Source of the DNA: an uncultured bacterium
GTDB lineage: Bacteria > UBA8481
Direction: 5' to 3'
Assembly (NCBI GenBank): GCA_964499705.1
Contig: CAZCME010000015.1
Coordinates: forward strand, 1-64,000
DNA: 64,000 nt
Position numbers and translations under genes: made by a program. Shown here piece by piece: positions 11,401-34,948 of the stretch. Positions within the stretch are counted from its first letter, which is position 1; each line of letters opens with the position of its first letter. Under the pieces are notes generated by a model that was given only the letters and a program-made list of their open reading frames with translations, was not told where the DNA came from and did not search any database.

Positions 11401-11717
11401 TGCTCGAGAAGCTTTTTCTGAGGTTCTGAAATGTCAAAGAGTCCGATTAGGTATATTCTTGCGGAGTTAGCGTTACCCAGATTGTCGCGTATCCAACCAA
11501 TCCACCTTAGAAAGTTCGGGTCATCGCCCGAAAAGCCAATCAAGCAAAGAGTGTTTTCCAGTAATGACTGCTGAACAGTGTTAACAAACGCGGCGTAATC
11601 AGTCGGGTATCTGCGGTAATCTTCTTCCGTGACAACGAATGGGCGTTGAGACGGGAAACTGCCGTGAAGCTTGATAATTCGAGGCCTACTTGAGTAAACC
11701 ATGTCTTCTTGATTAAC

Positions 11718-13140
11718 GGCAATGTCCCGACCCCTGTTGAACTTTAAATGGCGGCTCTCCGCCCGAGATTGTAAAACCTCGGGAGAAGAGAGACCTCGTT
11801 GCCTTGCAGGGCAACAAAAGGAGAGCCACCGATGGGAAGATACAGGAACGCCCCGAGCAGGGGCAATGTCATTCACGCGCAGGATCGATTTGAGAATCTC
11901 GCAGCCAGTCTCAAGGGCAGCTTGATGTCGGCGTTCATGCGATGCGGAGTCGAGGCATTCAACGAGATGCTGCGTAAGGAGGCCGAGGCACTGGCGGGGC
12001 CCAAGGGCAAGCATAATGCCGACCGCGGCGCGCATCATTGGGGCGCGACGCCGTCCGAGGTTATCCTTGGAGGGGGAAAGCTCAAGGTCATGCGACCGCG
12101 CATTCGAGCGACGGACAACCGGGAACTGTCCTTGGCTTCTTTCGAGCACGCTTCGAGCGAGGACTTGCTGAGCGATACCATGATGGAAGGCATCCTCTGC
12201 GGCCTTTCCACGAGAAGCTATGGCCGCTTCGTTGAGAAGGTGCAGGAGCGGAACGTGCGCGCGATGTCGAAGTCGGCGGTAAGTCGCCGCCTCGTCAAGG
12301 GAACACGGAAACGGATGGGCGAGATCCTCGGGCGTTCGCTGGCCGGTTTCGATCTTCTCGTTCTGATGATGGACGGCGTGGCGATCGGCGATCATACGAT
12401 CGTGGTCGCGCTCGGGATCGACAGGAACGGCCACAAGCAAGTTCTGGGGCTTCGAGAAGGCTCCACAGAGAACGCGGCCGTCGCGACCGCGTTGCTGAAC
12501 GATCTTGTGGAACGAGATCTGAAGATCGAAAAATGCCTGGCGGTCATCGACGGCGGCAAGGGAATCCGAAAAGCCATCATCGACGTCATGGGAAAGGACA
12601 CTCCGATTCAACGGTGCCGGCTTCACAAGGAACGGAACATCCTTGATCACCTTCCAAGAGAAAAAAGATCCTGGGTGAAGCTCCTGATCCAGAAGGCCTG
12701 GAACGCGGAAGGGGCTGACACGGCGAAGAACACGATGCTGAATCTGGCGAAGACGCTGGAAAACGATTACCCCGGCGCGGCGGGCAGTATTCGAGAAGGG
12801 CTCGATGATCTCTTCACCATCAAGAAGCTCGGGTTGAAAGGACCGCTTGCCGCGTGCCTGAGCTCCACGAATATCATTGAGGCGTTGATCGGTCGCGGTC
12901 GCGTGATCACGGGCAAGGTAAAGCGGTGGCGCAGCGGCGGAATGGCGATGCGTTGGATGGCTACGGCACTGGTAGAAGCGGAACGAGGATTCCGCCGCAT
13001 CAGAGGTCATCGAGAAATTCCATTCTTAGCAAATGTTCTCGGCCGCGGAGAACGCTTGGCCATGGCCGAGAAGACGGCGTAAGATCGAAATGAAATTGGA
13101 GAGCCGCCATTCAAAGTTCAACAGGAGCCGGGACATTGCC
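11718..13140 (+). mobile_element. IS256-family insertion sequence, 1423 bp
   Basis: 43-bp terminal inverted repeats (11718-11760 and 13098-13140, 3 mismatches) and an 8-bp target duplication TGATTAAC at 11710-11717 and 13141-13148. Confidence 0.96.
11832..13082 (+). CDS. IS256/mutator-family DDE transposase
   Basis: GLSTRSY, LMMDGV, VALGI, VIDGGKG, IQRCRLHKERN and STNIIE motifs; AAGGAGAG RBS before ATG 11832. Confidence 0.93.
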   Translation: MGRYRNAPSRGNVIHAQDRFENLAASLKGSLMSAFMRCGVEAFNEMLRKEAEALAGPKGKHNADRGAHHWGATPSEVILGGGKLKVMRPRIRATDNRELSLASFEHASSEDLLSDTMMEGILCGLSTRSYGRFVEKVQERNVRAMSKSAVSRRLVKGTRKRMGEILGRSLAGFDLLVLMMDGVAIGDHTIVVALGIDRNGHKQVLGLREGSTENAAVATALLNDLVERDLKIEKCLAVIDGGKGIRKAIIDVMGKDTPIQRCRLHKERNILDHLPREKRSWVKLLIQKAWNAEGADTAKNTMLNLAKTLENDYPGAAGSIREGLDDLFTIKKLGLKGPLAACLSSTNIIEALIGRGRVITGKVKRWRSGGMAMRWMATALVEAERGFRRIRGHREIPFLANVLGRGERLAMAEKTA

Positions 13141-13585
13141 TGATTAACGACTACATCGTATCTTCGAGATGGGACGTTGACGGTTGCGCGCTCAAGGAGA
13201 GTATCGTAGTTAGTCGTGAAGACATCGGACCACGGCAACTTCATTAGGCTGACATGAAGTGGCGACGGCTCGTACTCCGTGTCGGGTATTTCGGATCTCA
13301 ATATTTGGTCTAACGCTGGTCTTCCGAAGGCGGCTTGAACTTCATCTGCAAGTTTCAGCAAACTCAAGTAGTGATCAGTGTCTTTAGGAGCTTGCCCGTG
13401 AATCTTCTTATAGAAGATATTTCCTAATTCCGCCCAATCGGGAATCCTCTTGGCGGACGGATCAGCTTTCCTTGCATTTTTGCTAAATCCGGCACCGACC
13501 ATCACTGCCGCATGGCCTGACCACAGCCGCCTTGCTACTTCGTCCAAAAATGGCTCCATTTTGCAAGGGAGAGGTGATGCGTCGT

Positions 13586-15109
13586 TCATTTTCCATCACC
13601 TGAGGCTACCGCAGAATTCTCTAATATCTCAAATAGGCCTCGCATGGATTTTCGCAACTCCTTAGAACTCTTCTGCCAGTCGGCAATGGCCTGATTCAGG
13701 TCGCCGTCGGTGGCGCCGGCCTTGGATTCACCGTTTGACTTGAGCGGCTGGACGTACATAGGAATGCTCAGGTTGCACTTCTTCTCGCGGATCTCGTCAT
13801 TCGTCGCTACTTGAGCGAAGCCTGGAATGTTCGTGAAATCGCGATACGCGGTGACGATACGCTCGATGTGGTCGTTGGTCAGGAAACTCTGCGCGCGCTC
13901 GCGGGTCACTTCGTCCACGGCGTTGATGAAGAGAACCTTGTTGCGCCGCTCCTTTGGTTTACTCCGGCGGCAGACGACGACGCAGGCCTCCATCGGCGAG
14001 TTGTAGAAGAGGTTGGGGCCGAGGCCGAGCACGCACTCGACGACATCGTGCGCCACGAGTTTCTCGCGCATCTCGGACTCTTCGTTCCGGAAGAGGACGC
14101 CGTGCGGGAAGAGAATAGCGCAACGGCCCGTCTTCGGCTTCAGGCTCTGGATGATGTGCTGCCAGAATGCGTAGTCGGCACGGCCCTGGGGCGGAGTGCC
14201 GTAGATGTTGCGGCCCCACGGATCGGCCGACCAGGCGTCACGGTCCCACTGCTTGATTGAATATGGTGGATTCGCCAGGATCAGGTCGAACTGCTGGAGG
14301 CGGTCACCCTCGACGAAGGCCGGATGTGCGAGCGTGTCCGCCCTCGCGATCCGGAAGTCCTGGATGCCGTGCAGGAAGAGATTCATCCGGCCGATCGCCG
14401 ACGTCAGAAGGTTGCGTTCCTGGCCGGAGAGCTTGAGATTCCGCCACTCCTTCTTCCGCCGCTTCAGGTGCGTGACCGCGGAGAGGAGCATGCCTCCGGA
14501 ACCGCAGGTCGGATCGTAGATGGATTCGCCGGGGCGGGGTTCGAGCATCTCGGTCATCAGGTGAACGACCGTGCGATTCGTGTAGAACTCGGCCGCGGTG
14601 TGCCCCGAGTCGTCGGCGAACTTCTTGATGAGAAACTCGTAGCCTACGCCGAGTTCATCCTCCGGGCAGTTCGCGAGCGACAAAGTACGGGAGCTGAAGT
14701 GCTCTACCAGTTCTCTCAGCATCCGGTCAGGCAGACGATCCTTGTTCGTCCACTGAGCGTCGCCGAAGACGCCGAAGAGCGTCTCGGGGTTGGCCTGCTC
14801 GATTGCGCGCAACGCGTCCTGTATCTCCTTGCCGACATTACTGACCTTCGAGCGCGTCGCGCTCCATTGCGCTTCAGGCGGAATCTGGAAGCGGTGCTGT
14901 TCCGGCAGAGCCGCATATTGTTCGTCGCCACCTGATTCTTCAAGTGCGGCGGCCCGCTCCTCGTCGTGCACGTCGCAAAGCCTTTTGTAGAAGAGCAGCG
15001 GGAAGATGAATTGCTTGTAGTCCCCAGCGTCGATGGTTCCCCGTAGTAGCACGGCAGCGCCCCAGAGGTAGGACTCGAGTTCATTCTGTGTGATGCGGGC
15101 TACGCTCAT
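13586..15109 (-). CDS. hsdM: Type I R-M methyltransferase subunit M (NPPY motif; candidate m4C subunit)
   Basis: LESYLWGAA, EFYTNR, YDPTCGSGGML, ANPPY, PHGVLFR; ATGA overlaps with both neighbours. Confidence 0.95.
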   Translation of the reverse strand: MSVARITQNELESYLWGAAVLLRGTIDAGDYKQFIFPLLFYKRLCDVHDEERAAALEESGGDEQYAALPEQHRFQIPPEAQWSATRSKVSNVGKEIQDALRAIEQANPETLFGVFGDAQWTNKDRLPDRMLRELVEHFSSRTLSLANCPEDELGVGYEFLIKKFADDSGHTAAEFYTNRTVVHLMTEMLEPRPGESIYDPTCGSGGMLLSAVTHLKRRKKEWRNLKLSGQERNLLTSAIGRMNLFLHGIQDFRIARADTLAHPAFVEGDRLQQFDLILANPPYSIKQWDRDAWSADPWGRNIYGTPPQGRADYAFWQHIIQSLKPKTGRCAILFPHGVLFRNEESEMREKLVAHDVVECVLGLGPNLFYNSPMEACVVVCRRSKPKERRNKVLFINAVDEVTRERAQSFLTNDHIERIVTAYRDFTNIPGFAQVATNDEIREKKCNLSIPMYVQPLKSNGESKAGATDGDLNQAIADWQKSSKELRKSMRGLFEILENSAVASGDGK

Positions 15110-21182: not shown

Positions 21183-22964
21183 CTACAGGGCGAGTCTCAG
21201 GCCGAGCAAAGCGACGGTCGAGATGATTCCGATGAAGGTCCGGAGGTCGTTCATGCCTTGTCTGCGGGGTTCGTCGGACTCGACGTAGACGGTCGAGTTG
21301 GCGGGGAGTGTGGGGTTGTCCTGTTTGCCGGAAGTGATTCGGGTGAGATCGTACGTGGTGGCGCGGCCGTCGGGGAATCGGACGCGGATCGCGCTCGTTC
21401 GGGATGTGTTCGTCACGCCGCCGGCGGAGGCGAGGACTTGGGTGAGGGTGCCGGGCTGGAACTGGCCGGGGGTCTTCACGTCGCCGATGACGGTCACGGT
21501 CTGCGGTGTGTCGGCCTGACCTGCGGCGGCAACTGGAAGACGCGGAATGAGCACGCGGTCGCCTTCGCGGAGGTCGGTGTCGGGATCGTGGCCGAGGGCG
21601 ATGTCGCGGGCGTTAACGGTGGCTGTGTCGCCGTGGCCGCGGTCGATTATGACGCTGGTGAGATCGGCACGGGTGTCTGGCTTGGCTTCCCGGACGGCGT
21701 CAGCGACGGTGAAGGCTTCGGTTGTGCCGGGATGTTGCACGGGGCCGTAGACCTGCACGTTGGGGACGAGTGCGCGAGCGCGGATCGGGATTGTGATGCG
21801 GTCGCGGTCGTCCAGTCTGGGGTCGTCAAGTTTTCCGGAGAAGATTGCCTGGACGTTGATGCGCACGGATGTTTCGGCACCTGAGCGGAATTCTACGTTT
21901 TCGAGGTCGGCTTCGGGGATTGGGCCGCCGGCGGCGGAGATGGCTTCGGAGAGAAAGAGCGCGGTGACCCAGTTCGGTTTCGATACGGCGCCGGAGACGA
22001 GGATTCTTGGGAGCGTGGGAACGACGATGATCTCGCCGCCCTGCAGTTCGATGTCGCGTTCGACGCCGGCCATGATTCTGGCGGCGTTGTAGAGCGTGGT
22101 GCTTTCTCCGGAGGTGATGCGGACTTCTGTGGGATTGGCTTCGTATGTGAATCCTTCGGCGGCGGAGATTGCGCCGAGGAGGGTTGTCGCGGGAAACGTG
22201 CCGGACTTCTTTACGGCACCCAGGACGACGGCGTTGCGCTGAATCTTAACCGGGGGTGCGAGGTAGAAGACGGTGACGGGACTGGCGGCGATGCCCTTCG
22301 CGCGGATCGTGGAGTCGAGGTCCGTGGTGGCTATTGCCGCGGTCTTGCTCGCGACACGAAAGACACCGAGGCCGCGGATGAGAATCTCGCCGTCGGGATT
22401 GATCGTGAAATCCTGTGTCTGGTTGCCCACAACAATTCGTATGCGATCACCTGGGGAGAGGACGTGACCGGCTACGGTCACGTCATCGAGGGGCGCGGCT
22501 CGCCGCGCCCCTTCTGCCTCGATTGTTGAGGCGGCGTTTCGAAATGCTGATTCGTCTATCATGGGCGAAAGGTCGACGTAGCGGATCTCCGCATTGCCGT
22601 TGCGGACCATCTCGATGTTTACGTCCTTGTCGCCGTGCATGACGAGTGCCACGGTGCGGCCGTAGCGATCTGTGGAATGCGCTTGATCGATGAGCACGGT
22701 GACGCGCTCGCTGAGGATCATTTGCTTCAGAGCATCCGACGATTCTTCGCCGCCCGGTTCGCCGGTGGGCTTGTTGTGCTCGGGGTGGGCGACCTCGGGC
22801 GCGTTGATTCCGGCGAGGCGGTAATTGATCCCATCTGCGCCCTTGAACGTGTCGCCGTCGTATATGAATTCGACGGCGACCGTTCTTCGCTCAATGTCGG
22901 CTTCGGCGCGAAGGTAGGATGGACTCGATATCTGAGCGATGAGTGCGAGGATGAGAAACGTCAT
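21183..22964 (-). CDS. Thermonuclease (SNase) fused to a Wza/OPX-like protein (Poly_export domain + 4 SLBB/beta-grasp repeats + C-terminal hydrophobic helix)
   Basis: Hydrophobic N-terminus; YDGDTF, RLAGINAPE, DRYGR, NIEMVRNG (SNase); LSPGDRIRIVV...INPDGEILIRGLG (Poly_export); four V.G.V..(P)G repeats. ATG 22964 overlaps the radA-like TGA. Confidence 0.82.
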   Translation of the reverse strand: MTFLILALIAQISSPSYLRAEADIERRTVAVEFIYDGDTFKGADGINYRLAGINAPEVAHPEHNKPTGEPGGEESSDALKQMILSERVTVLIDQAHSTDRYGRTVALVMHGDKDVNIEMVRNGNAEIRYVDLSPMIDESAFRNAASTIEAEGARRAAPLDDVTVAGHVLSPGDRIRIVVGNQTQDFTINPDGEILIRGLGVFRVASKTAAIATTDLDSTIRAKGIAASPVTVFYLAPPVKIQRNAVVLGAVKKSGTFPATTLLGAISAAEGFTYEANPTEVRITSGESTTLYNAARIMAGVERDIELQGGEIIVVPTLPRILVSGAVSKPNWVTALFLSEAISAAGGPIPEADLENVEFRSGAETSVRINVQAIFSGKLDDPRLDDRDRITIPIRARALVPNVQVYGPVQHPGTTEAFTVADAVREAKPDTRADLTSVIIDRGHGDTATVNARDIALGHDPDTDLREGDRVLIPRLPVAAAGQADTPQTVTVIGDVKTPGQFQPGTLTQVLASAGGVTNTSRTSAIRVRFPDGRATTYDLTRITSGKQDNPTLPANSTVYVESDEPRRQGMNDLRTFIGIISTVALLGLRLAL

Positions 22965-24730
22965 TGCAGATTTCTTCTCGCCGGCTCGGTCGCCTTCGAC
23001 GACACGCAGTCGTTCCATACTTTGTGTAGCTGATACGCCTTTCGGATGCCGACGTTGAGCTGCCTTCGGAGAAGGTCGGGCGTGACATCGTGGTGGCGTT
23101 GAACAAGCTCGGCGATGCGCGCAATCAGCGGGTCGATGGGTGGACAAGCTGGGCGAGTGGGCGGTAGTGGGGCAGGCGGAATGATCGCCGGCGGTTCTGG
23201 AATCTGAACGGGTGCGCTTTCTGGCTTCGGTTTCTCCGGTTCGACTGGCGACTTCAATTTCCTGATCCTCTTCGAGTGCTGTTTACGCTTCGTGTCCTTC
23301 TCGAGAGATTTCGCTTTTGCCTCGATGGACTTGGCTTTGGACTGTCGCGTTTCTTTTGGACGACCAGACTCGCTTTGCTCGATTGGGAATTCGATGGCGC
23401 GTAAGGCATCGAGGAGAGTCTTCGCGCGAAACGTCGTGAGCTTCGCGCTCGGGGGGAGCGCGTCGCTGCCGATGTGAGGGACGATGACGTTCTGGATTCC
23501 GAGGATCTCGAGTTCGCGGTAGCGCGAGACGAAGTCGCGCGGCGGTAGAAGTCTTCCGTCGAGCGCTACTTCGCCGATTGCTCCCCAGCTTGTGGGCATG
23601 GGCATGGCTTTGACCGCGTGTGCCGTTGCGATCGCGACGGCGAGATCGGCGGCGGAATCCGAAATCTTGTAGCCGCCCAGGACGGTGAGCGCGATGGTGT
23701 TCGGAGCCTTGATGCCGTATCCGTCGAGGATTGTCTGGATGAGTCGGAGCCGCTCCTTCGGGTAGCCGACCACGGCTTCGGAGAGATCGCCGCGTTGGAG
23801 AAATCCGACCTGAATCTCGGTCGCGATGGGCTTCGTGCCTTCCATCGCGACAGCGATGATGCCCTTCCCGCCGCCTTTCAGAATCTCGGCACCGGGGCTG
23901 GCGACTTCCTCGATGCCGTGCGAGGTCATGCGAAAACTTCCGACCTCCTCCTTCGAGCCGAAGCGATTCTTTTCGACACGGAGGAGGATGAAACCGGGGA
24001 GGGTCATCTCGTCGAGGTGAAAAACGGCATCGTATAGATGCGGGACGGACATGGGGCCGGCGAACTCGCCGGTCTTCACGATCTGGCCGGCGACAAGAAA
24101 TGGTATGCCGGACATTTTCGCGAGCTCGACTATCTTGGCGGAGACTTCTTTGACCTGGGCCGGACTGCCGGGCTCGTTGTTGCAGGATTTCGTGCGCATT
24201 CGCTGAAGCGAGTCAATGATGACGATTACGGCCTTGAGCGCATACATCTCGTGGACGGTTTCCTCGAAACCTTTGTCCGCGAGGATGAATAGTTTGGGAT
24301 CTCGCGCATCGATACGTTTCGATCTCGCCGCGGCTTGCGGGAGCGATTCTTCCGCGGAGACGTAGAGCACGGGGCCGTGCTTCTCGGCGATGCGCGAGGC
24401 GATTTGCATGAGCATGGTGGACTTTCCGACTCCGGGTGCGCCCGTGAAAATGACGGCGGATCCCTCGCAGATGCCTCCTGCCTCGGGCGGTCCGCCGAGA
24501 ACGCGGTCGACCTCGGGGTAACAGGTCGAGATGCGCGGAGGATCTTTGACGTCGGCGTCACTTACCGAGAGCGCCGGCATTCTCGGCGCAACCCGATGCA
24601 TTGTCTGCTCGGACTCCTCGACGCGAATCTCGCTCGGATCGAGCCACTTGCCGCACGCGGGGCAACGGGGGAAGTATTCGGACTCCTGGTGCCCGCAGGA
24701 CGGACAGGAGTAGATGGCGCGGTTGCTCAT
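22961..24730 (-). CDS. radA: RadA/Sms-family ATPase with a Lys/Pro-rich linker and FtsK-gamma-like C-terminal winged helix
   Basis: CPSC...CPAC Zn finger, GAPGVGKST, YVSAEES, IIDSLQ, KNRFG signature, Lon-like ADLAVAIA...GEVALDG; extra tail DPLIARIAELV...LLRRQLNVGIRKAYQL. Confidence 0.85.
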   Translation of the reverse strand: MSNRAIYSCPSCGHQESEYFPRCPACGKWLDPSEIRVEESEQTMHRVAPRMPALSVSDADVKDPPRISTCYPEVDRVLGGPPEAGGICEGSAVIFTGAPGVGKSTMLMQIASRIAEKHGPVLYVSAEESLPQAAARSKRIDARDPKLFILADKGFEETVHEMYALKAVIVIIDSLQRMRTKSCNNEPGSPAQVKEVSAKIVELAKMSGIPFLVAGQIVKTGEFAGPMSVPHLYDAVFHLDEMTLPGFILLRVEKNRFGSKEEVGSFRMTSHGIEEVASPGAEILKGGGKGIIAVAMEGTKPIATEIQVGFLQRGDLSEAVVGYPKERLRLIQTILDGYGIKAPNTIALTVLGGYKISDSAADLAVAIATAHAVKAMPMPTSWGAIGEVALDGRLLPPRDFVSRYRELEILGIQNVIVPHIGSDALPPSAKLTTFRAKTLLDALRAIEFPIEQSESGRPKETRQSKAKSIEAKAKSLEKDTKRKQHSKRIRKLKSPVEPEKPKPESAPVQIPEPPAIIPPAPLPPTRPACPPIDPLIARIAELVQRHHDVTPDLLRRQLNVGIRKAYQLHKVWNDCVSSKATEPARRNLQ

Positions 24731-25818
24731 TCGCTTCCATCGCCTTGTCTGTGCTCCGAGGTTGTGACGGTCAGCTGGCCGTGGAGGACGAAAATGCCGC
24801 GCGAGAAGAGCGCTGCGCGGAACCGCTCCGCAGTGCAGTACGTGATGACGATCTCGTTCGCGTCTTTGCTTCTCGACTTGATCAGGACCGTGGGAAACTC
24901 CTCCGATGCGGCGAGGTAGTTCTCCTCGCGCTGGTCTTCGTCGAGTGGTTCCGTCACGAGAAGCCCGGTGACAATGGCGCTGTCCGGAATTTTGTCAGCG
25001 ATCTCATCCACGAGCAGGTGGTCGATCTCGACGTGGCTCGACTTTCTCGTGATGGGGCGAGCGCGCTCTACGAGGATGCGGTCGAGGGTGACGGACGGTG
25101 ACGACGTGCCGGTCGTGAAGACGGCATCGCCTCTGGCGAAGTAGAGCGTGGACTGCTCCACGGCAACGACACGGAATTTCTCCTCGTAGTCGGTGGGGAG
25201 AAGTGTGTCGCGCCAGGTGCCGCGGATCTTGGCGGTGAGTTCGTAGTCGGGGAAGAAGCGACGGGCCTCGCGGGAGGCGGAATACACGTCGCGCGTGAGA
25301 AGGTAGAAGCTCGAGCGCAAACCCATGACGGAGATCGGCGTAAAAGCGGTCGTGACGAGGAAGAGGAGAGCGCAGAGGATGAACTCGGGGACGCTGCCGA
25401 CGTTGATGCGGTAATCCTCGGACGCGGGAAAGACCCAGCGGGCGCGGTGCGGCCAGAAGAGTGGAACGCCGGGGATATTCGCCATGTCGATCAAGATGTG
25501 CGAGAGAACGCCGAACCATGCGGCGAGGTAGTAGAGAAGGCCCCATCCGATCCAGAGCGGTATGAAGAGGAAGAGACACGCGACTAAAAAGACCCACGAG
25601 TGCGTCACAGTGCGATGGCCGAGTTTTCGCTCGAGGAACTGCGGGATGCCGGTGAAGTAGAAGAGAAATCCGATGGTTGAGCGTGGGTGGTCGATGTCGG
25701 GGAGAAGTGAACCGATCGCGGCAAGAGCGAGCGCGGTGCCGTCCATCTCGAACTCGAAAGACGAGCACGCGAATTCGGCGGTGAGCAGGCCGAAGGGAAT
25801 GTGAGTGATCGAGGTCAT
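24727..25818 (-). CDS. YdjM-like inner-membrane metal-dependent hydrolase with a C-terminal soluble domain
   Basis: TH, GSLLPDIDH, HRTVTHS, SHILID and GVPLFWP motifs with several TM segments. Confidence 0.85.
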   Translation of the reverse strand: MTSITHIPFGLLTAEFACSSFEFEMDGTALALAAIGSLLPDIDHPRSTIGFLFYFTGIPQFLERKLGHRTVTHSWVFLVACLFLFIPLWIGWGLLYYLAAWFGVLSHILIDMANIPGVPLFWPHRARWVFPASEDYRINVGSVPEFILCALLFLVTTAFTPISVMGLRSSFYLLTRDVYSASREARRFFPDYELTAKIRGTWRDTLLPTDYEEKFRVVAVEQSTLYFARGDAVFTTGTSSPSVTLDRILVERARPITRKSSHVEIDHLLVDEIADKIPDSAIVTGLLVTEPLDEDQREENYLAASEEFPTVLIKSRSKDANEIVITYCTAERFRAALFSRGIFVLHGQLTVTTSEHRQGDGSE

Positions 25819-26711
25819 CAGTTACTTCTCGATGTCCGCATCATGAACCAGCGGACGAGGAGCATCATTCCGGAGAGCGCTCCGAAGATGGCGTACATGT
25901 CGAACTGGTACATGCCTCGGTTTATGTAGCGCATGATGATGAGAAATGCGAAGAACGTAAGGATGAGCGGCGCTGCGTCGAAATACGAATTGCCGGACCG
26001 ATGAACGAAGAGTTCACGGATGTAGGACTTGTCGATTCGCTCGGCGCCGCGGAGGCGGTCGGCGGATTCGACGATAGCGCTCGGGACTCCGCTCGAGAGC
26101 GTGGCAATCTGGTTCAGGAGAAAATCCTTCGTGCCCTTGTCGATGGGTTTCACGCCAGGGACGGTCTGTATAACGTGCGCGGCCAAATCGCGCGCGTGCT
26201 GAGGCGAGAGCGGGTTCACGATGACCTCGTCGAAGCGCCAGAAGAGGCGGTTGAATCTTGGATGCCTGTGGCGGTTTCGCGCGGCGGCGATGATCGCGAC
26301 TTTCTCGGCGAGAACCTCGATGACGGGGACCGCGAGGACGGGAAGCTGATCGAATTCGTCGAGGAGGAGAACGACTTTCTTGCCGCTCATCTGCGGGAGC
26401 GCGAGAATTTCAGCGATCATGTGGCCGAGTTCCACTATTCGTGTGGCGTGTCCGACCTTCCGCGGCTTTGAGACGCCGGCGGTGATGCAGAGCCAGGAGT
26501 AGATCGAGTCGATGATCTCCTTTGCGGGCACGGGACGGCGAACGTAGTGAATCGCTGTGTCGGTCTTCTTGATCTTGCGCTGAAGGTCGAGGAGGAGATG
26601 GGTCTTGCCGATACCGTTTCTTCCAATGAGCAAGGTGTGGTGCCCCTGCATGGTGTTCCGGAGCAAAGTCTCGATCTCGTTATCGCGACCGATGGTGGCA
26701 TCGAGGATCAC
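25818..26711 (-). CDS. AAA+/P-loop ATPase with two C-terminal transmembrane helices
   Basis: IGRDNE, GRNGIGKT Walker A, LLLDEFD Walker B, SSGVP; hydrophobic tail. Confidence 0.8.
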   Translation of the reverse strand: MILDATIGRDNEIETLLRNTMQGHHTLLIGRNGIGKTHLLLDLQRKIKKTDTAIHYVRRPVPAKEIIDSIYSWLCITAGVSKPRKVGHATRIVELGHMIAEILALPQMSGKKVVLLLDEFDQLPVLAVPVIEVLAEKVAIIAAARNRHRHPRFNRLFWRFDEVIVNPLSPQHARDLAAHVIQTVPGVKPIDKGTKDFLLNQIATLSSGVPSAIVESADRLRGAERIDKSYIRELFVHRSGNSYFDAAPLILTFFAFLIIMRYINRGMYQFDMYAIFGALSGMMLLVRWFMMRTSRSN

Positions 26712-27730
26712 GAGTCGCTCTTTGGTGAGGTGCCGACGGATACCGTGAAGTACGCGGCGGGTTTGCCGGGCTCGTGGACGTAGATCGGGATCGAGTAGAA
26801 ATCCTGTGGCTTGGTGAAGACGACTTCGAATGTGACCGTGTCGCCCTGGCGAAGGTCCTGACCGAGGACGAGGACGTTGGCCTGCACGTATCGATACTGC
26901 GTACCTTCCTTGTCGGTGCGGGAGACGGGGCGGAGGAGAAATCCGTCGACGCGCACTTCGACGGATTTCTGCGAGGTGACGGTGAGCAAGTGGGTGGCGG
27001 GGTTGTACGTTGCCGCGATACCCGGTGGCGCGGGTTCAGCGGTGGATGCTCCGGACTGTGCGACGGCAGCAACTCCATGCGTGGTCCCCGCCACCCGCTC
27101 GCTTCCACCGACGGTGCCGGAAGTTCCGGCCCCCTGGAAAGAGCGCGTGGCGCGTTTGGTCTGACCGTCTTCGATCCACTCGAACTGAACCGAAAAGTTG
27201 TCGGCGGGAAGTTCGATGGTTTGGTTTGGGGCGAGAGTGCCGATCAGGCGATAACGCGGCTTCGTCACCTCGAGATTGATCGCGGGCACGTCGCCGGCAT
27301 TCGTGAGCTTGCCGTTTTGCACGACGATGAGCGGGCGACCGTTGTTCTGGCTTGCACCGGGCATAAGCGTCGTGAGGTCGATCTCGCTTCGCGCGACATG
27401 GGCGGTGATGATCGCGGCGAGGAAGATCGTGGCGGCGATGACGGTGACGCGGATCGGAGGCGCGGATGTGGCGGCGCGAGTGAGTTTCGCTGTCCACACA
27501 CACACGGATTTCGCGAGCACGCGTAAAAATCTCGTAATTAATGAGTCCGGAACTGGTGCGGCATGAGTTACGAGCGGTATGGAATAGGGCGTCTTGACGG
27601 TCGACCTGCGCGCTTCACGGAATTCCGGATCATCGAGTGGAATCTCAACGACAGAGACTGCGCGTGCGTGGGGCGTGCCGGATGAGCGCACGCTCGTGGC
27701 GACGCGCTGGCCGTAGATCATTCGACTCAT
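26708..27730 (-). CDS. Single-pass membrane protein of unknown function with beta-rich extracytoplasmic domains
   Basis: TM segment VTVIAATIFLAAIITAHVA; ATGA/GTGA overlaps with both neighbours. Confidence 0.7.
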   Translation of the reverse strand: MSRMIYGQRVATSVRSSGTPHARAVSVVEIPLDDPEFREARRSTVKTPYSIPLVTHAAPVPDSLITRFLRVLAKSVCVWTAKLTRAATSAPPIRVTVIAATIFLAAIITAHVARSEIDLTTLMPGASQNNGRPLIVVQNGKLTNAGDVPAINLEVTKPRYRLIGTLAPNQTIELPADNFSVQFEWIEDGQTKRATRSFQGAGTSGTVGGSERVAGTTHGVAAVAQSGASTAEPAPPGIAATYNPATHLLTVTSQKSVEVRVDGFLLRPVSRTDKEGTQYRYVQANVLVLGQDLRQGDTVTFEVVFTKPQDFYSIPIYVHEPGKPAAYFTVSVGTSPKSDS

Positions 27731-28380
27731 GGTGTGAGTCGATTCGCGCGGAGCACTTCGATCACGTCTCGCCATGCCGCATCGGCTGATTTACCATCCG
27801 CGCCGGCGACGGCGACCGTGAGTCCTATGTCGATCGGCTTGCCGTTTCCGGGCGTGACGAGACAGACGGATTTGGCGATTCTGTCGGAGATCTCCGCGGC
27901 ACTCTCCGTGTCCGAATTGCGGAGTATAAGACCGAAGATGCCAGGATCGATACGGGCGAGGTCATCGCCTGTTCGTATGGCCGAGAGAAGCGAGGCCGCG
28001 AGATTCTTCACGACGATGTCTCCTCGCTGCGCGCCGAATCGAATGTAGATCCCCTCAATGTCGAATGCGAACGCGGCGATGCTGATGAAGAAGCGATGGC
28101 TCGCGGTTGCGATCTCGGCGGCCAGACGGTGGAAGAAGAATGCTCGACTTTTTGTCTGCGTGAGCGGGTCGATTGCATTCTCGCGGCGGATGTTCTCGAC
28201 GATGGGACGGAATATGCGAGTGAGGTCGATGTTGCGCCGGGGATCGGCGAGAATCGCGGCGTCAAACGCTACGCCGAGGCACTCCGGGCAGATGAAGACG
28301 ATGAGTTCTCCCGCTTCCACGACGCGCGCGTCAGTGACCGCGCCGCACGAGAGCGGGCATGTATGACGAAGAAGGCTCAT
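27727..28380 (-). CDS. Zn-finger plus degenerate GGDEF-domain protein (I-site retained)
   Basis: CPLSC...CPEC; DPLT, FDIE, G...GD; RTGD I-site followed by DLARIDPGIF in place of GGDEF. Confidence 0.8.
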   Translation of the reverse strand: MSLLRHTCPLSCGAVTDARVVEAGELIVFICPECLGVAFDAAILADPRRNIDLTRIFRPIVENIRRENAIDPLTQTKSRAFFFHRLAAEIATASHRFFISIAAFAFDIEGIYIRFGAQRGDIVVKNLAASLLSAIRTGDDLARIDPGIFGLILRNSDTESAAEISDRIAKSVCLVTPGNGKPIDIGLTVAVAGADGKSADAAWRDVIEVLRANRLTP

Positions 28381-28664
28381 TGAAGAACCATCCCGACGAT
28401 CCAATTATCTGTGAGGGGCGACCGTTTTCGATGTAGCCGGACGATTACAGCGCCGTGTGTCTCGCCGTGAAGGGTAAGCGAGATCGGCGCGCGTAGATCT
28501 TCGACAGTCCATGACAGGAACGCGGGATCATGGATTCGGACAGCGCAATTTGTCGCGGAGAAATCGAGGAGATTGCCTTTGCACCGCTTGTCGCCGCGCG
28601 TGAGTTTTACGAGCGCGAGCGATGATGTCCTCATCCGCACGGAGACGCGATCGCGGCGGATCAT
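28377..28664 (-). CDS. PilZ-like small protein (divergent motifs)
   Basis: 95 aa; N-terminal RRDRVSV, GNLLDFSATNCAVRI (DxSxxG-like with N), AVIVR and terminal WIVGMVL follow the PilZ barrel pattern; ATGA-coupled on both sides. Confidence 0.55.
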   Translation of the reverse strand: MIRRDRVSVRMRTSSLALVKLTRGDKRCKGNLLDFSATNCAVRIHDPAFLSWTVEDLRAPISLTLHGETHGAVIVRLHRKRSPLTDNWIVGMVLQ

Positions 28665-29287
28665 CCGTCCCTCCTGCGCCAGTCGGGGGCGCTCCAGGTG
28701 AGCCGAAGGCCTTCGCAAAGTCGCGAGAGGGCGCGGGGATACCGTTCCTCGAAGGCGGCCATGTCGAGATTTGTGGCGATGAGCGTGGGGAGCCGCCGGC
28801 GGTATCGCTGATCGAGGATTCGGTCGGCGAGTTCGCGCGTCCAGTCGGACCGACCCTCGGCCCCGAGGTCGTCGAGGATGAGGAGGTGCTGATACTCGCC
28901 AAGGTTGGGCACGATGGCGCCGTGGTCTGAGATCGCGTTACGGTGCCGTTCGACGAGGTCCGGATGATACCAGTACCAGACCTCCTTTCCGGACTCGATC
29001 CAGCTCGTTGCAAAGGCGAGGAGGGCGTGGGTCTTTCCTGAACCGAAGTTCGTTTTGCCTCGGTCTGAGTGGAGAAAGGCACTCCACTCCGCGAATCTCC
29101 ACGTCCGGAGCATCGGTGTCTGCTCGCGGAGTTCGAGAATCTCCTGCCACGTCGCCCAGGTGCAATTCTCGCGGCCGGCCTGCGCGGCGAGTCGGTCGAG
29201 CAGGCATTGCTTGCACCGTCGGACAGACTCACGTCCCTGCGGATCCTTGGTGTAGAGCCAGCCGCTCATGCATCCGTGTTCGGTCAT
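28661..29287 (-). CDS. DnaC/IstB-like ATPase (helicase loader)
   Basis: N-terminal Cys/His, FGSGKTHA, LLILDDLGAE, RYRRRLPTLIATN; GGAGG RBS; follows the replication initiator. Confidence 0.85.
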   Translation of the reverse strand: MTEHGCMSGWLYTKDPQGRESVRRCKQCLLDRLAAQAGRENCTWATWQEILELREQTPMLRTWRFAEWSAFLHSDRGKTNFGSGKTHALLAFATSWIESGKEVWYWYHPDLVERHRNAISDHGAIVPNLGEYQHLLILDDLGAEGRSDWTRELADRILDQRYRRRLPTLIATNLDMAAFEERYPRALSRLCEGLRLTWSAPDWRRRDG

Positions 29288-30291
29288 GATTTCCTCCTCG
29301 TCGATGGATGCGGGAAGGTCTTGAGGACCGCCCCTGATTCGATGTCGTATTGCTCGCGCATGAGCTGGCCGTCGATGAGCCGGTCGCGGATGTCGGTCTT
29401 TCTCTGAGGGGCCGATGGCGCGGCGCATTCTCTCCGACCGCTTCTCGTCGAACTCGGCCTGCCGCTGTCCTGTTGAGTCGTGAGCCAGCTCGTGACGAAG
29501 CGGCCGATGCCCGCGGCGGTCTTCCGGCGTTTCGGGTTGCCGATGAGCCACGCGCGCATTTTGCCAAGCTCGTGTCGAACATCGACGCCGGGGAAGGCTT
29601 TCTCCATCTCGGTGATGAAGTCTTCGGTGACAGGCGCTTCCTTGTCGCTTGTCAGCGGGAGCATCACGACGATTTCGCCGGTGCATTGTGTAGCGGGCTT
29701 GACTCCTCCATGTCGCTTCAGTTTTGCCACTTGTGCAACCGGCTTGGAGGAATCGCCACTCGTCGGCGATCCCTCCGAGCTACCAGATTCCTGCTCCTGT
29801 TCTTGCTCCTGCTCCTGCTCTTTAACCCCCTCAGGTGCGGGTGACCTCGTTTCGACACGTGGGGGGACAGGTGTCGGGGAGTAGGATTCGAAGATCCCGT
29901 GCAGGTGCCGGGACAGGTGCGCTGTATTGGCGAAGAAGTGGCTGAGGAGATGCGTCGATGGCAGGTCGTGGAGGTCGTTCAGGCAGTTCTTGAAGACGCT
30001 GGGGTTCTCCGGCGCGTTGTACTTCCACCAGGTGGGGATGTAGAGGACGCGGAGTTGGTTGTCGAAGCGCCATTCGAAGGTCCGGCAGACCTTGTCGAAG
30101 AAGAGGAGGAAGACGTTCGGCTCGAGGTTCAGGTCCTCGGCAGCGAGTGCGGGAGAAAAGTTGAAGAGGCCGATGCGATTGGATTGCGCGGTGAAGGCGT
30201 AGATCGCGACCAGCTTTTCGATGTGATCCAGCTTGCGGATGTTCTCGTCACGCCACATTCGGGGATCGATCTTTCGGTATCGCTGAGCCAT
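29284..30291 (-). CDS. Phage-type replication initiator protein
   Basis: MAQRYRKIDPRMWRD N-terminus, WWKYN, EQEQEQEQE linker, C-terminal ELGKMRAWL..NP.RRKT..GI.RF..SWL domain; directly upstream of the DnaC-like gene. Confidence 0.8.
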   Translation of the reverse strand: MAQRYRKIDPRMWRDENIRKLDHIEKLVAIYAFTAQSNRIGLFNFSPALAAEDLNLEPNVFLLFFDKVCRTFEWRFDNQLRVLYIPTWWKYNAPENPSVFKNCLNDLHDLPSTHLLSHFFANTAHLSRHLHGIFESYSPTPVPPRVETRSPAPEGVKEQEQEQEQEQESGSSEGSPTSGDSSKPVAQVAKLKRHGGVKPATQCTGEIVVMLPLTSDKEAPVTEDFITEMEKAFPGVDVRHELGKMRAWLIGNPKRRKTAAGIGRFVTSWLTTQQDSGRPSSTRSGRRECAAPSAPQRKTDIRDRLIDGQLMREQYDIESGAVLKTFPHPSTRRKS

Positions 30292-30292
30292 C

Positions 30293-31060
30293 TCAGTGGT
30301 CCGGCTTCGCCACGACGCGCTTTGCGCGTTCTTCGTCCGTGAGGTCGCCGGCGTAAACGGATGTCGCGCGGCCACGATCCTTCGCGGCGTAGAGCGCGGC
30401 ATCGGCGAGATCGAAAATGCGGTCGTGGAGTTCGATGGCGTCGTCAGGAGGAGTCTCGCCGAAGTCGGGCGGATACGAGGAGATGCCGCATGAAACATTG
30501 ATGCTGCTCTTCAGAGATCGACCCGTGATCGCGTGGAATTGGTATTCGGACGTTTCCTTCACGATGCGCTCGGCAATGGCTTTGGCGCCGACGACATCGG
30601 TCTCGGGGAGGATGAGGCCAAACTCGTCGCCTCCGACGCGGGCGGCGCAATCGCTCTTACGGGTGAAGTGCGCGAGGAGTTCTCCGAACTCCTTCAAGAC
30701 GAAATCACCGGTTGCGTGGCCGAAATCGTCGTTTGCGGCCTTGAAGCCATCGAGGTCCATGAGGACGAGCGAGAGAAAGTGCGAGCCTTTCGCGCGAGCG
30801 AGCTCGGCGGTGAGTTGCCGATCGAAGAACTTGCGATTGCCGAGGCCTGTGAGTTTGTCGATGTACGCGCCCTTCTCGATCTGGCGGATGCGGCCGAGGA
30901 GTGTGGTCATGAACTGATCCGCGGGCATTCCGCGCTCGGCGACGATGCCGATGACGGCCTGCGACGGAAGCCAGATTCCGAGGCATGTCTGGCAGATGTC
31001 GAAGTTGACGGACGCGATCTTCTGCGTCTCGATCGGCACACGACAGCAGGGACAGTCCAT
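30293..31060 (-). CDS. zf-TFIIB-like Zn finger plus diguanylate cyclase (intact GGDEF)
   Basis: CPCC...DICQTCLGIWL; DKLTGLGNR, DLDGFK.AND.FGH.TGD, RKSD I-site, ARVGGDEF, ADAALYAAK. Start at 31060 or 31111. Confidence 0.92.
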   Translation of the reverse strand: MDCPCCRVPIETQKIASVNFDICQTCLGIWLPSQAVIGIVAERGMPADQFMTTLLGRIRQIEKGAYIDKLTGLGNRKFFDRQLTAELARAKGSHFLSLVLMDLDGFKAANDDFGHATGDFVLKEFGELLAHFTRKSDCAARVGGDEFGLILPETDVVGAKAIAERIVKETSEYQFHAITGRSLKSSINVSCGISSYPPDFGETPPDDAIELHDRIFDLADAALYAAKDRGRATSVYAGDLTDEERAKRVVAKPDH

Positions 31061-31070
31061 CAGACGCGTT

Positions 31071-31433
31071 TCACTTCGCTGGCGGCGTTTCGGTTTCATC
31101 GTGTGATCCATTTCGTTCGGCGACCAGTTTTTCGACGACGGCGCCGACCTTCTCGCGGATGTCGGAGGCCTGAAGGACCTGACCGCCGCGGAGCTCGTTC
31201 ACCTTGTCGCGGAGGTAGAAGTGCGCGAGAACCAGGTCCCGGTCTTTACTGTCCCATGCGTACGGATCGGCCTCGACGTATGCGTCATCGTCGATCGCGA
31301 TCATGTAGAGACCTTCCGTAGTGATGCCGACATCGGCGGTGCGATCGTCGGCGAGTTTTGCAAAGTTGATCGGGATGAGCGCGACGAGATAGTGGCGATC
31401 GCCGGTCTCGAGGCGGAAGTGTTTTACGCGCAT
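31071..31433 (-). CDS. Hypothetical protein (120 aa)
   Basis: Protein-like ORF that fills its slot in the operon. Confidence 0.65.
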   Translation of the reverse strand: MRVKHFRLETGDRHYLVALIPINFAKLADDRTADVGITTEGLYMIAIDDDAYVEADPYAWDSKDRDLVLAHFYLRDKVNELRGGQVLQASDIREKVGAVVEKLVAERNGSHDETETPPAK

Positions 31434-32197: not shown

Positions 32198-32370
32198 TTG
32201 GCCGCCTCCGTCTGGAATTCGACTTCACGGGCAAGACGGAGGAGGCGAGCCCACGCCCAGAGGCAATCGGGGGAGGAGGAGTAGACGACGCCTTTGGGCA
32301 ATGTCGGTTGGGAAGCGGCGTCATTCCGGACATCGGCGGCTCGGTCCGTGTTGGGCTGATCGTCAAGCAT
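32194..32370 (-). CDS. Hypothetical protein (58 aa)
   Basis: ATG 32370 with AGGAG RBS, overlapping the cro-like stop. Confidence 0.55.
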   Translation of the reverse strand: MLDDQPNTDRAADVRNDAASQPTLPKGVVYSSSPDCLWAWARLLRLAREVEFQTEAAK

Positions 32371-32653
32371 CGCGTCTCCTTCGCGCCTGCGGACGATCAC
32401 GGCGGGGGAGATTTGGCCGTGCGCTGGATTGCTCGGACCAGCGGCAACCCGCTTCGGTGAACATTCGGGGGAATAGAACGTAGGGAGGCACACCGAGAGC
32501 TTTGGCGATGCGAAGTGCGGTAGCCGGTCTGGTATGGGCGCGAGCTTCAATCCTGGCAATTCCACCGCGAGTGAGGCCCACGCGGCGTGCCAGTTCCCCA
32601 AGCGACCATCCCTTGGCGAGGCGGATTTCTTTCAGTGGTTCTTTCAGTTCCAT
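32363..32653 (-). CDS. Cro-like XRE helix-turn-helix regulator
   Basis: LKEIRLAKGWSLGELARRVGLTRGGIARIE...IAKALGV; first gene of the long operon. Confidence 0.85.
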   Translation of the reverse strand: MELKEPLKEIRLAKGWSLGELARRVGLTRGGIARIEARAHTRPATALRIAKALGVPPYVLFPRMFTEAGCRWSEQSSARPNLPRRDRPQARRRRDA

Positions 32654-32762
32654 ATCAATTATGAATGACAGATATGAACTACAAATTAGCATTCTGTCAA
32701 CATTAGATTTCATACGCGTTATTTGTGTTGACAAACGTTGACAAACCGCTACATTTCCACTC
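32654..32762. promoter_or_regulatory. Divergent promoter/operator region of the switch
   Basis: AT-rich; TTGACA on the minus strand (32695-32700) and twice on the plus strand (32728, 32738, in a tandem GTTGACAAAC repeat); TACATT at 32750-32755, 7 nt before the ATG. Confidence 0.7.
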
Positions 32763-33158
32763 ATGAAAGTCATCGAGTTTCTCAAGCAGACGTTAAAGGA
32801 CTGTGACAAGCCTCAATACGAGGTGTGCAATAGCGTGAACGTCGCGCAATCGACGCTCAGCCATGTGATGCGCGGGCGCAGCGATCCCAGACTGGACACC
32901 TTTGTGAAGCTTGGTGGTCCGCTCGGCTACGAGGTGCAGGTCGTCACAAGGAAGGCGGCCTTCATGCTCGGGATCAAGGGAGGCAAGGCGGATCTTGTCG
33001 AAGAAAATAGCAGGCGCAAGGAAACTCGATTGGAACGGCTCGCGACCTTCTACTCACGGCGATTATCTCCCCTGGAGCTCGAAGGCTTGTGCGAGGAGCT
33101 GGAGATGCGCGCAGATCACATCGACAAACAAAAAAAGCGCGTCGCGAAAGCGAGCTAA
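32763..33158 (+). CDS. XRE-family HTH repressor (CI-like, no peptidase domain)
   Basis: QYEVCNSVNVAQSTLSHVMRGRSDPRLDTFVKL; divergent from the cro-like gene and upstream of the integrase. Confidence 0.8.
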   Translation: MKVIEFLKQTLKDCDKPQYEVCNSVNVAQSTLSHVMRGRSDPRLDTFVKLGGPLGYEVQVVTRKAAFMLGIKGGKADLVEENSRRKETRLERLATFYSRRLSPLELEGLCEELEMRADHIDKQKKRVAKAS

Positions 33159-34907: not shown

Positions 34908-34948
34908 CCTTGAAAGGGCCATGTCCTGGGCCTCTGGACGATGGGGAC
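34876..34948 (-). tRNA. tRNA-Glu (anticodon TTC); CCA not contiguous
   Basis: GTCCCCATCGTCCAGAGGCCCAGGACATGGCCCTTTCAAGGCTAAAACACGGGTTCGAATCCCGTTGGGGACG: 7-bp acceptor stem, CTTTCAA loop, GTTCGAATC T-loop. Confidence 0.95.

Follow-up and report, generated by a model that had tools for sequence, protein, structure and literature searches.

A thermonuclease joined to a complete Wza-type export protein in a coupled gene cassette of an integrative element

A single gene that joins a thermonuclease (staphylococcal nuclease, SNase) domain to a complete Wza-type outer-membrane polysaccharide export (OPX) protein is present in a 64,000-nucleotide stretch of DNA from an uncultured groundwater bacterium (GenBank assembly GCA_964499705.1, contig CAZCME010000015.1, positions 1 to 64,000; hereafter the window). 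It closes a translationally coupled cassette that belongs to the conserved core of an integrative element adjoining tRNA-Glu, and the fusion is a rare, undescribed combination inside an undescribed five-gene cassette. With respect to function, we tentatively favor an explanation in which the fusion would be the envelope part of an apparatus specific to the element, with a periplasmic nuclease serving as a gatekeeper toward DNA.

Architecture of the fusion protein

All 593 codons of the gene (21183-22964, minus strand) are open, with no internal stop, and its start codon ATG overlaps with the stop of the RadA-like gene that precedes it (ATGA). An earlier reading made from the sequence only had proposed that an SNase domain and a complete Wza-type OPX protein share this gene, and the proposal is borne out by the uninterrupted frame, by Pfam, by AlphaFold2 and by structure comparisons with Foldseek and with VIA, a structure aligner independent of Foldseek. 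Specifically, Pfam places SNase at residues 49-130 (E 1.4e-13), Poly_export (PF02563) at residues 168-230 (E 8.7e-7; 29.5 bits, cut-off 28) and SLBB_2 in four stretches (E 2.7e-23), with a further match to SLBB (E 3e-9). The NCBIfam models for EpsE-type exporters and thermonuclease NucI are matched in part, below their cut-offs.

The AlphaFold2 model, computed from a 48-row alignment, has a mean predicted local distance difference test score (pLDDT) of 91.3 and a predicted template modeling score (pTM) of 0.45, so that the individual domains are confident and their mutual arrangement is not. From the N-terminus onward the model contains a helix at residues 2-11, an SNase fold spanning 24-146, a disordered linker (150-163), Poly_export, four beta-grasp units at 244-315, 320-392, 402-472 and 490-563, and a 28-residue terminal helix at 565-592. 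The hydrophobic N-terminus, the Poly_export domain with its four SLBB repeats and the terminal helix of the sequence-only reading are therefore all recovered, the last of them as an amphipathic helix. The linker differs in size between family members and reaches approximately 100 residues in the homologue P0013. In terms of net charge, the OPX part is neutral to acidic, and the SNase domain carries −8.

That reading had also named a failure of the C-terminal part to model as OPX as a reason to give up the fusion; the part does model as OPX, and the top Foldseek matches are Wza (2w8h, 2j58, 9r64; E ~1e-14), followed by the class-3 OPX protein WzaB and then by SNase. Structure alignment with VIA assigns residues 24-153 to SNase with Z 15.5-15.9 (1sty: Z 15.9, root-mean-square deviation (rmsd) 3.4, 127 aligned residues), and residues 167-319 to WzaB 9n9a with Z 14.1 (7xfd: Z 13.3, Poly_export). 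Wza itself (9r60) aligns over the region 167-395 with Z 11.4 and 224 residues. Two more distant similarities were found within the SLBB repeats: GfcC (3p42) aligns with residues 488-567, corresponding to SLBB4 (Z 10.0, 76 residues; no Pfam Caps_syn_GfcC match), and ComEA (8dss) aligns with residues 241-319, corresponding to SLBB1 (Z 8.2, rmsd 1.3, 59 residues, 30% identity). The C-terminal helix is a candidate for an outer-membrane-spanning helix like Wza D4, and in the VIA alignments listed Wza D4 is not paired with it.

The N-terminal helix, which has no Cys, lipobox or basic n-region, would serve as a short signal of the Sec type or else as a membrane anchor. The lipobox, which had already been reported missing, is absent because no Cys occurs among residues 1-30. 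A canonical n-h-c signal is found in P0013.

The fusion is genuine and rare

The fusion belongs to a family with 14 close homologues, and its architecture recurs in 10 full-length metagenome proteins with 51-77% identity, which answers the concern, raised with the original proposal, that it might have no homologues. A partial copy (L001, 79% identical) lies on a 3.3-kb contig of another metagenome-assembled genome (MAG). A stop or frameshift separating two genes, a further concern of the sequence-only reading, was not found: contigs from four public runs (two studies) run across the SNase/OPX junction and also across the gene start with zero indels. Among the public runs listed for this stretch there is none of RNA. 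This bridging evidence consists of assembled contigs, not raw reads, and one of the studies may be the source of the window. Taken together, the uninterrupted frame, the 10 full-length fusion homologues of different sources and the independent contigs that bridge the junction contradict a wrong joining of two genes by assembly or annotation and render it virtually inconceivable.

Only three clusters of the family are present among 1.84 billion representative proteins, and in none of the other 147 hits listed from this search is SNase joined to OPX, with scores falling to those of ordinary SLBB-repeat exporters. The family is present in 2 of the 5 genomes of the phylum of the host and in 1 of the 135 genomes of the phylum to which the genome with L001 is assigned. 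This MAG (L001/L010, G005:C310) is labeled Nitrospirales, and its phylum set (135 genomes) differs from that of the host (5). Either the element has spread across phyla or the contig with L001 was mis-binned.

Searches of further collections returned the nuclease part or nothing. The plasmid collection gave 50 records, all of them matching over the SNase part alone, and none of the 50 covers ≥80% of the query; in the phage collection a single record matches, again over the SNase part only. No relative was found among metagenome contigs searched with the family alignment and with P0006, or among viral contigs searched with the family alignment, the RadA paralogue and the YdjM-like protein of the cassette. 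Some database entries bear automatic double names that combine polysaccharide export with endonuclease YncB. In the published literature, no paper was found that pairs OPX or SLBB with thermonuclease or SNase, nor any relevant one that brings together YdjM, RadA and mobile genetic elements. The main text of the OPX classification nowhere uses the word "nuclease", but its supplementary architecture tables might list such fusions (PMC9603273).

The nuclease domain and its loss

The nuclease motifs noted from the sequence alone are all present, namely DGDT at residues 36-39, R49, GINAPE at 52-57 and DRYGR at 99-103. Alignment to solved SNase structures equates D38 with D21, R49 with R35, N54 with D40, E57 with E43 and R103 with R87, where D21 and D40 are ligands of the calcium ion and R35, E43 and R87 are catalytic. 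The equivalents of D21, R35, E43 and R87 are kept in all 11 complete SNase-bearing members. The remark that the usual Asp of the GIDAPE motif is replaced by Asn describes a real substitution (N54), but one that is a common natural variant: Asn occupies the D40 position in 10 of the 11 complete SNase-bearing members, in 8 of the 11 standalone SNases of the alignment and in the SNase of the host itself. Because it is common in relatives, the Asn is a trait of the subfamily and not a sign of decay. Substitutions of D40 lower the activity of SNase without abolishing it. Overall, the active site of the nuclease looks intact by comparison of these residues. The thermonuclease of the host (G000:C25; L007 8247-8849, minus strand) has 200 residues with a lipoprotein-type signal and is 39% identical to the fused domain.

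Three of the 14 homologues (P0012, P0014 and P0015) are without SNase. A low-complexity spacer replaces the domain in P0014 and P0015, and in P0012 the N-terminal helix runs straight into Poly_export. In a FastTree phylogeny of the OPX part that included all 15 family rows, with P0038 and P0042 as outgroups, the SNase-bearing P0013 is the first branch, and the SNase-less proteins fall at two separate places among SNase-bearing ones. The clade of P0014 and P0015 with P0004 has a support of 0.91, and the placement of P0012 is weak (0.72-0.77). This pattern, which depends on predicted gene starts, suggests two or more losses of SNase within the family, and such repeated loss would make the nuclease an accessory to the OPX core.

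A separate observation concerns P0179, an unrelated protein of 417 residues in which a YdjM membrane domain is fused to the same SNase subtype (shared HP..KPTGEPGGEE motif). It offers an independent hint that YdjM and SNase act together at the membrane.

A coupled cassette in an integrative element

The order of the minus-strand operon that ends with the fusion is GGDEF-zinc ribbon, DnaD-like, DnaC/IstB-like, degenerate GGDEF, bitopic membrane protein, AAA_22 ATPase, YdjM-like membrane protein, RadA paralogue and fusion (Table 1). Overlaps of 1-4 nt (ATGA, GTGA, TGATG) join the last five or six of these genes, and three of the cassette proteins have predicted membrane segments. A second genome (G002) has the same gene order and overlaps from the GGDEF-zinc ribbon gene to the OPX gene, at 40-69% identity, although its copy of the OPX protein is without SNase. 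The element in G002 adjoins tmRNA; its integrase is of the tyrosine type and is accompanied by a Gp3-like directionality factor. Other genes, of no known function, follow the OPX gene in L001, so that the fusion marks the boundary between core and cargo.

Homologues of the YdjM-like protein are about as few as those of the OPX protein. For three of them, the longest listed contigs are equal in size to those of OPX homologues (57537, 32351 and 25834), which suggests that the YdjM-like and OPX genes share contigs. The YdjM-like protein was not found in G005, which is an incomplete MAG. A structure-cluster search with its C-terminal domain returned only another functionally uncharacterized YdjM cluster (template modeling (TM) score 0.83), and the same search with the 355-residue bitopic protein gave a best score of 0.78 with TM <0.3. 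The GGDEF-zinc ribbon protein that opens the operon strongly matches phage protein families whose function is not known (phrog_5594, E 1.7e-40).

The RadA paralogue reaches 281 bits against TIGR00416 (cut-off 403), as compared with 471 bits for the RadA of the host itself. In the last ~60 residues of its tail (22961-23260, minus strand), the sole Pfam hit is FtsK_gamma, at E 0.028 and below the cut-off. A motif resembling this tail is visible in the protein of G002, but Pfam does not find FtsK_gamma in the G002 tail and no FtsK chain is among the PDB sequence hits, and the FtsK_gamma idea was demoted to a weak lead.

The absence of polysaccharide synthesis genes, as first noted from the sequence, holds for the element (21-35 kb). 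Specifically, no polysaccharide co-polymerase (PCP/Wzc), Wzx/Wzy or ABC transporter gene is found there or in the G002 locus, and a Wzy_C/TPR protein (38994-41585) lies outside the element. The flanking host DNA also encodes a protein of 3124 residues (43827-53201, minus strand) with nine Beta_helix and seven NosD repeats and fn3/Ig domains, which is preceded by a TPR protein.

In terms of the element as a whole, one end is marked by a large serine recombinase gene, the 3′ end of which overlaps the opposite-strand tRNA-Glu by ~33 nt, and the second end lies beyond the contig start. A search within the window for an attachment-site repeat of the tRNA-Glu region gave only chance-level matches of ≤12 nt. 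Downstream of the fusion the element carries a cargo of defense genes comprising AbiE, GmrSD, a type I restriction system in which Dsr2 is embedded, a deaminase and ArdC. The ArdC-type anti-restriction gene (ArdcN and zincin peptidase; gene 2-691, within 2-1652) runs off the contig start and is unique in the genome, and a cytidine-deaminase-like gene of 270 codons adjoins it. The Dsr2-type SIR2 gene is apparently split in two open reading frames (8430-13589, minus strand), one of 187 residues that covers positions 6-148 of the Dsr2 profile and one of 1526 residues that covers positions 142-1220 from its residue 428 on only. The pair is flanked by two tandem HsdM genes on one side and by HsdS/HsdR of the restriction system on the other.

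Table 1. Positions in the window of the fusion gene, its domains and the genes of the element
Feature	Position	Strand	Remarks
Whole gene, SNase-OPX fusion (P0001), 593 aa	21183..22964	-	Stop codon 21183-21185
N-terminal hydrophobic helix, residues 1-12	22929..22964	-	AlphaFold2 helix 2-11
SNase domain, residues 24-146	22527..22895	-	Key residues D38, R49, N54, E57, R103
Flexible linker, residues 147-166	22467..22526	-	AlphaFold2, pLDDT ~38
Poly_export (Wza D1-like), residues 167-240	22245..22466	-	PGD...DG..L..GLG motif
Four SLBB beta-grasp domains, residues 241-564	21273..22244	-	~241-317, 318-397, 398-480, 481-564
C-terminal amphipathic helix, residues 565-593	21186..21272	-	AlphaFold2 (565-592), hydrophobic moment
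RadA/Sms paralogue	22961..24730	-	~145-aa Lys/Pro-rich C-terminal extension; stop overlaps start of fusion (ATGA)
YdjM-like polytopic membrane protein	24727..25818	-	~200-aa C-terminal domain
AAA+ (AAA_22) ATPase	25818..26711	-	Two C-terminal hydrophobic helices
Bitopic membrane protein, 355 aa, no known family	26708..27775	-	Transmembrane ~104-130, beta-rich C-terminal part; likely start 27730
Degenerate GGDEF with transmembrane segment	27727-28404	-	Absent in G002
DnaC/IstB-like	28661-29686	-	
DnaD-like	29284-30498	-	
GGDEF with N-terminal zinc ribbon	30293-31111	-	Also in G002
Divergent pair of small helix-turn-helix genes	32363-33158		
Large serine recombinase	33324-34907	+	Element end, abuts tRNA-Glu
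tRNA-Glu	34875-34948	-	

Comparison with known systems

According to the OPX classification (PMC9603273), in class-1 OPX proteins Poly_export is followed by 1-14 SLBB domains and then by a C-terminal membrane helix, and 78% of these proteins carry a lipoprotein signal. The fusion resembles these proteins, and Wza (PDB 2J58) in particular, in its Poly_export domain, its SLBB beta-grasp domains, four in number and thus within the published range, its C-terminal helix and its diderm host. It differs from them in having neither a lipoprotein signal nor a Pfam Wza_C match, in its four SLBB domains as opposed to the two of Wza, in its N-terminal nuclease and in its genomic setting, a mobile element that lacks polysaccharide genes and in which its neighbors are RadA, AAA+ and YdjM genes. 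With respect to GfcC (class 2, KpsD/GfcC-type), SLBB4 is alike by structure, not by Pfam.

The nuclease part shares with staphylococcal nuclease and other thermonucleases (PF00565) the fold as well as the residues D21, R35, E43 and R87, and many conjugative plasmids carry thermonucleases, as seen in the 50 plasmid records described above. The differences are the Asn at D40 and the acidic character of the domain. Moreover, thermonucleases are free-standing or lipid-anchored, whereas here the nuclease is fused to an OPX protein.

The closest functional parallel is YokF, which a recent preprint describes as a membrane thermonuclease of prophage SPbeta that degrades plasmid DNA at the conduit (bioRxiv 10.1101/2025.10.26.684598). 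Both are thermonucleases of mobile elements at the membrane, positioned at a trans-envelope conduit, a position that is presumed for the fusion. In contrast to the fusion, YokF as portrayed there comes from a monoderm host, docks on FlhA through protein contact and has a C-terminal autoinhibitory domain; the nuclease of the fusion is covalently joined to its putative conduit, and no inhibitory domain is evident.

A further comparison is with DNA uptake. The OPX and ComEA SLBB domains have been placed in one family (PMC1796856), in keeping with the alignment of ComEA to SLBB1, and a lipoprotein thermonuclease is reported to be needed for transformation of Methanococcus (PMC10133366). At the level of the system, an envelope protein, a nuclease and RadA occur together in both settings. 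Unlike ComEA, the fusion lacks a helix-hairpin-helix (no HhH family among its Pfam hits at E up to 1), and unlike DNA-uptake machinery the cassette has no ComEC, DprA or pilus genes.

Possible roles of the fusion

Under the gatekeeper explanation that we tentatively favor, the fusion would be exported and would oligomerize like Wza into a ring stack that begins on the inner-membrane side of the periplasm and ends at the outer membrane. With its five ring-forming domains the stack would have the length to cross much of the periplasm, and the C-terminal helices would insert in the outer membrane. The three membrane proteins of the cassette would also be parts of the apparatus, and the tethered nuclease would be held near them, at the periplasmic, inner-membrane-proximal base, where it would cut DNA in the envelope. 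As a gatekeeper it would either exclude incoming foreign DNA or trim DNA handled by the apparatus, in a manner comparable to YokF. The suggestion in the sequence-only reading of a polymer channel repurposed for DNA with a nuclease at one mouth agrees in part with this explanation: the architecture, the intact-looking active site and the DNA-related mobile setting speak for it, but passage of DNA through the channel is hypothetical.

Several observations weigh against the gatekeeper explanation. The N-terminal hydrophobic stretch has ~11 residues, no basic n-region and no canonical cleavage site, and given this short, atypical stretch the export and topology of the fusion are inferred. At the opposite end, the C-terminal helix gives no match to Pfam Wza_C (PF18412) at E up to 1 and is modestly amphipathic, with a hydrophobic moment of 0.38 that is matched by 81 of 2000 shuffles. 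Oligomerization is likewise inferred; co-folding of two copies of residues 164-593 gave a score of 0.00, which counts neither way. PADLOC (PADLOC-DB v2) finds no known defense system for the fusion or the cassette, and reports a weak SNase-domain match (PDLC01096, E 1.2e-4) and weak P-loop matches for the neighbors. The absence of SNase from 3 of the 14 homologues, nested among bearers, means that the nuclease is dispensable for the core role of the family. Finally, the RadA paralogue could be the replicative helicase of the element, unrelated to the envelope genes, and the two GGDEF genes in this operon would suit a biofilm or polysaccharide reading just as much.

That last reading is an unlikely but serious candidate, in which the OPX protein would join a host polysaccharide pathway switched on by the diguanylate cyclases of the element, and the nuclease would trim matrix DNA, extracellular or periplasmic. 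Poly_export and SLBB define polysaccharide exporters (Pfam; PMC9603273), one of the two GGDEF genes is conserved in G002, and the OPX core persists without the nuclease. Moreover, the host, which is diderm (BamA present), itself encodes two OPX proteins that score strongly for Poly_export; the gene of each adjoins a Wzc-like gene with a tyrosine-rich tail, and the host thus offers two Wzc-type loci. However, these host OPX proteins are already partnered and are only ~25% identical to the fusion, which makes mixed rings unlikely; the same identity and the placement of the host proteins in their own Wzc-type loci speak against the co-assembly with host OPX that was put forward from the sequence alone. 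Genes for a glycosyltransferase, a flippase, a polymerase, a PCP or an ABC transporter are furthermore absent from the element, the Poly_export score is barely above cut-off, and the genes tightly coupled to the fusion encode a RadA paralogue and an AAA+ ATPase, not sugar enzymes.

A true DNA conduit is rather unlikely in our assessment. Here a RadA-family hexameric motor, inner-membrane proteins and the OPX channel would form a new trans-envelope DNA translocation machine that exports the excised element or imports DNA, and the nuclease would serve to process one strand or the ends. The translational coupling of the RadA paralogue to the OPX gene is consistent with this, as is the position of the cassette downstream of DnaD- and DnaC-like replication genes. 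ArdC, present in the element, is typical of elements transferred as single-stranded DNA. A conduit of this type would also fit the result that VirB4, VirD4, TraG-D_C and Relaxase (Pfam) have no match in the 96%-complete genome, but the search covered these four families only, and with the contig ending at window position 1 a type IV secretion system (T4SS) could sit on unassembled DNA. The kinship of the OPX and ComEA SLBB domains (PMC1796856; SLBB1 and 8dss) points in the same direction, as would the FtsK_gamma-like match in the RadA tail, which may be due to chance given its score and its absence from the G002 tail and the PDB sequences. Against a conduit stand the charges of the OPX part and the SNase domain, which give no sign of a DNA-friendly surface, and the loss of the nuclease in 3 of 14 members.

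In its most ambitious form, which we regard as quite improbable, this proposal would make the five coupled genes a DNA translocation machine of an unknown kind, by which an element without detectable T4SS genes moves its own DNA out or foreign DNA in. Its parts would be a RadA-family motor, an inner-membrane platform of the AAA+, YdjM-like and bitopic proteins, and an outer-membrane channel formed by the nuclease-bearing OPX protein.

A role other than that of a channel is highly doubtful. In such a role the fusion would be a scaffold in the periplasm, its terminal helices fixing it in the inner membrane, with SLBB domains that bind peptidoglycan or glycans and merely position the nuclease, or a spacer in members that lack it. 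The architecture is that of a class-1 OPX protein, Poly_export-SLBB(1-14)-C-terminal helix (PMC9603273), which argues against a scaffold, even though the SLBB domain of ComEA serves for surface attachment or oligomerization (PMC1796856) and SLBB4 resembles GfcC, a non-channel protein with a C-terminal amphipathic helix. Hydrophobic helices at both ends and a long flexible N-terminal tether that is retained even without SNase would suit a scaffold as well. Nonetheless, the N-terminal stretch is not long enough to cross a membrane, and two Arg residues precede the C-terminal helix, on the would-be periplasmic side, as compared with one after it, contrary to the positive-inside rule.

Implications

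A mobile element has captured a complete Wza-type protein, outside any polysaccharide context, coupled it to genes for a RadA paralogue and a membrane ATPase, and fused it to a nuclease. To our knowledge, OPX proteins are known only as polysaccharide exporters encoded together with genes for sugar polymers. If the fusion guards or carries DNA, the use of alpha-helical outer-membrane channels would extend to nucleic acids. Such a role, if true, would also add a new envelope-level layer to the competition between mobile elements, to which the Gram-positive gatekeeper YokF would be a parallel. Even under a modest reading, the family provides a defined five-gene cassette whose SNase-bearing and SNase-less versions constitute a natural experiment.

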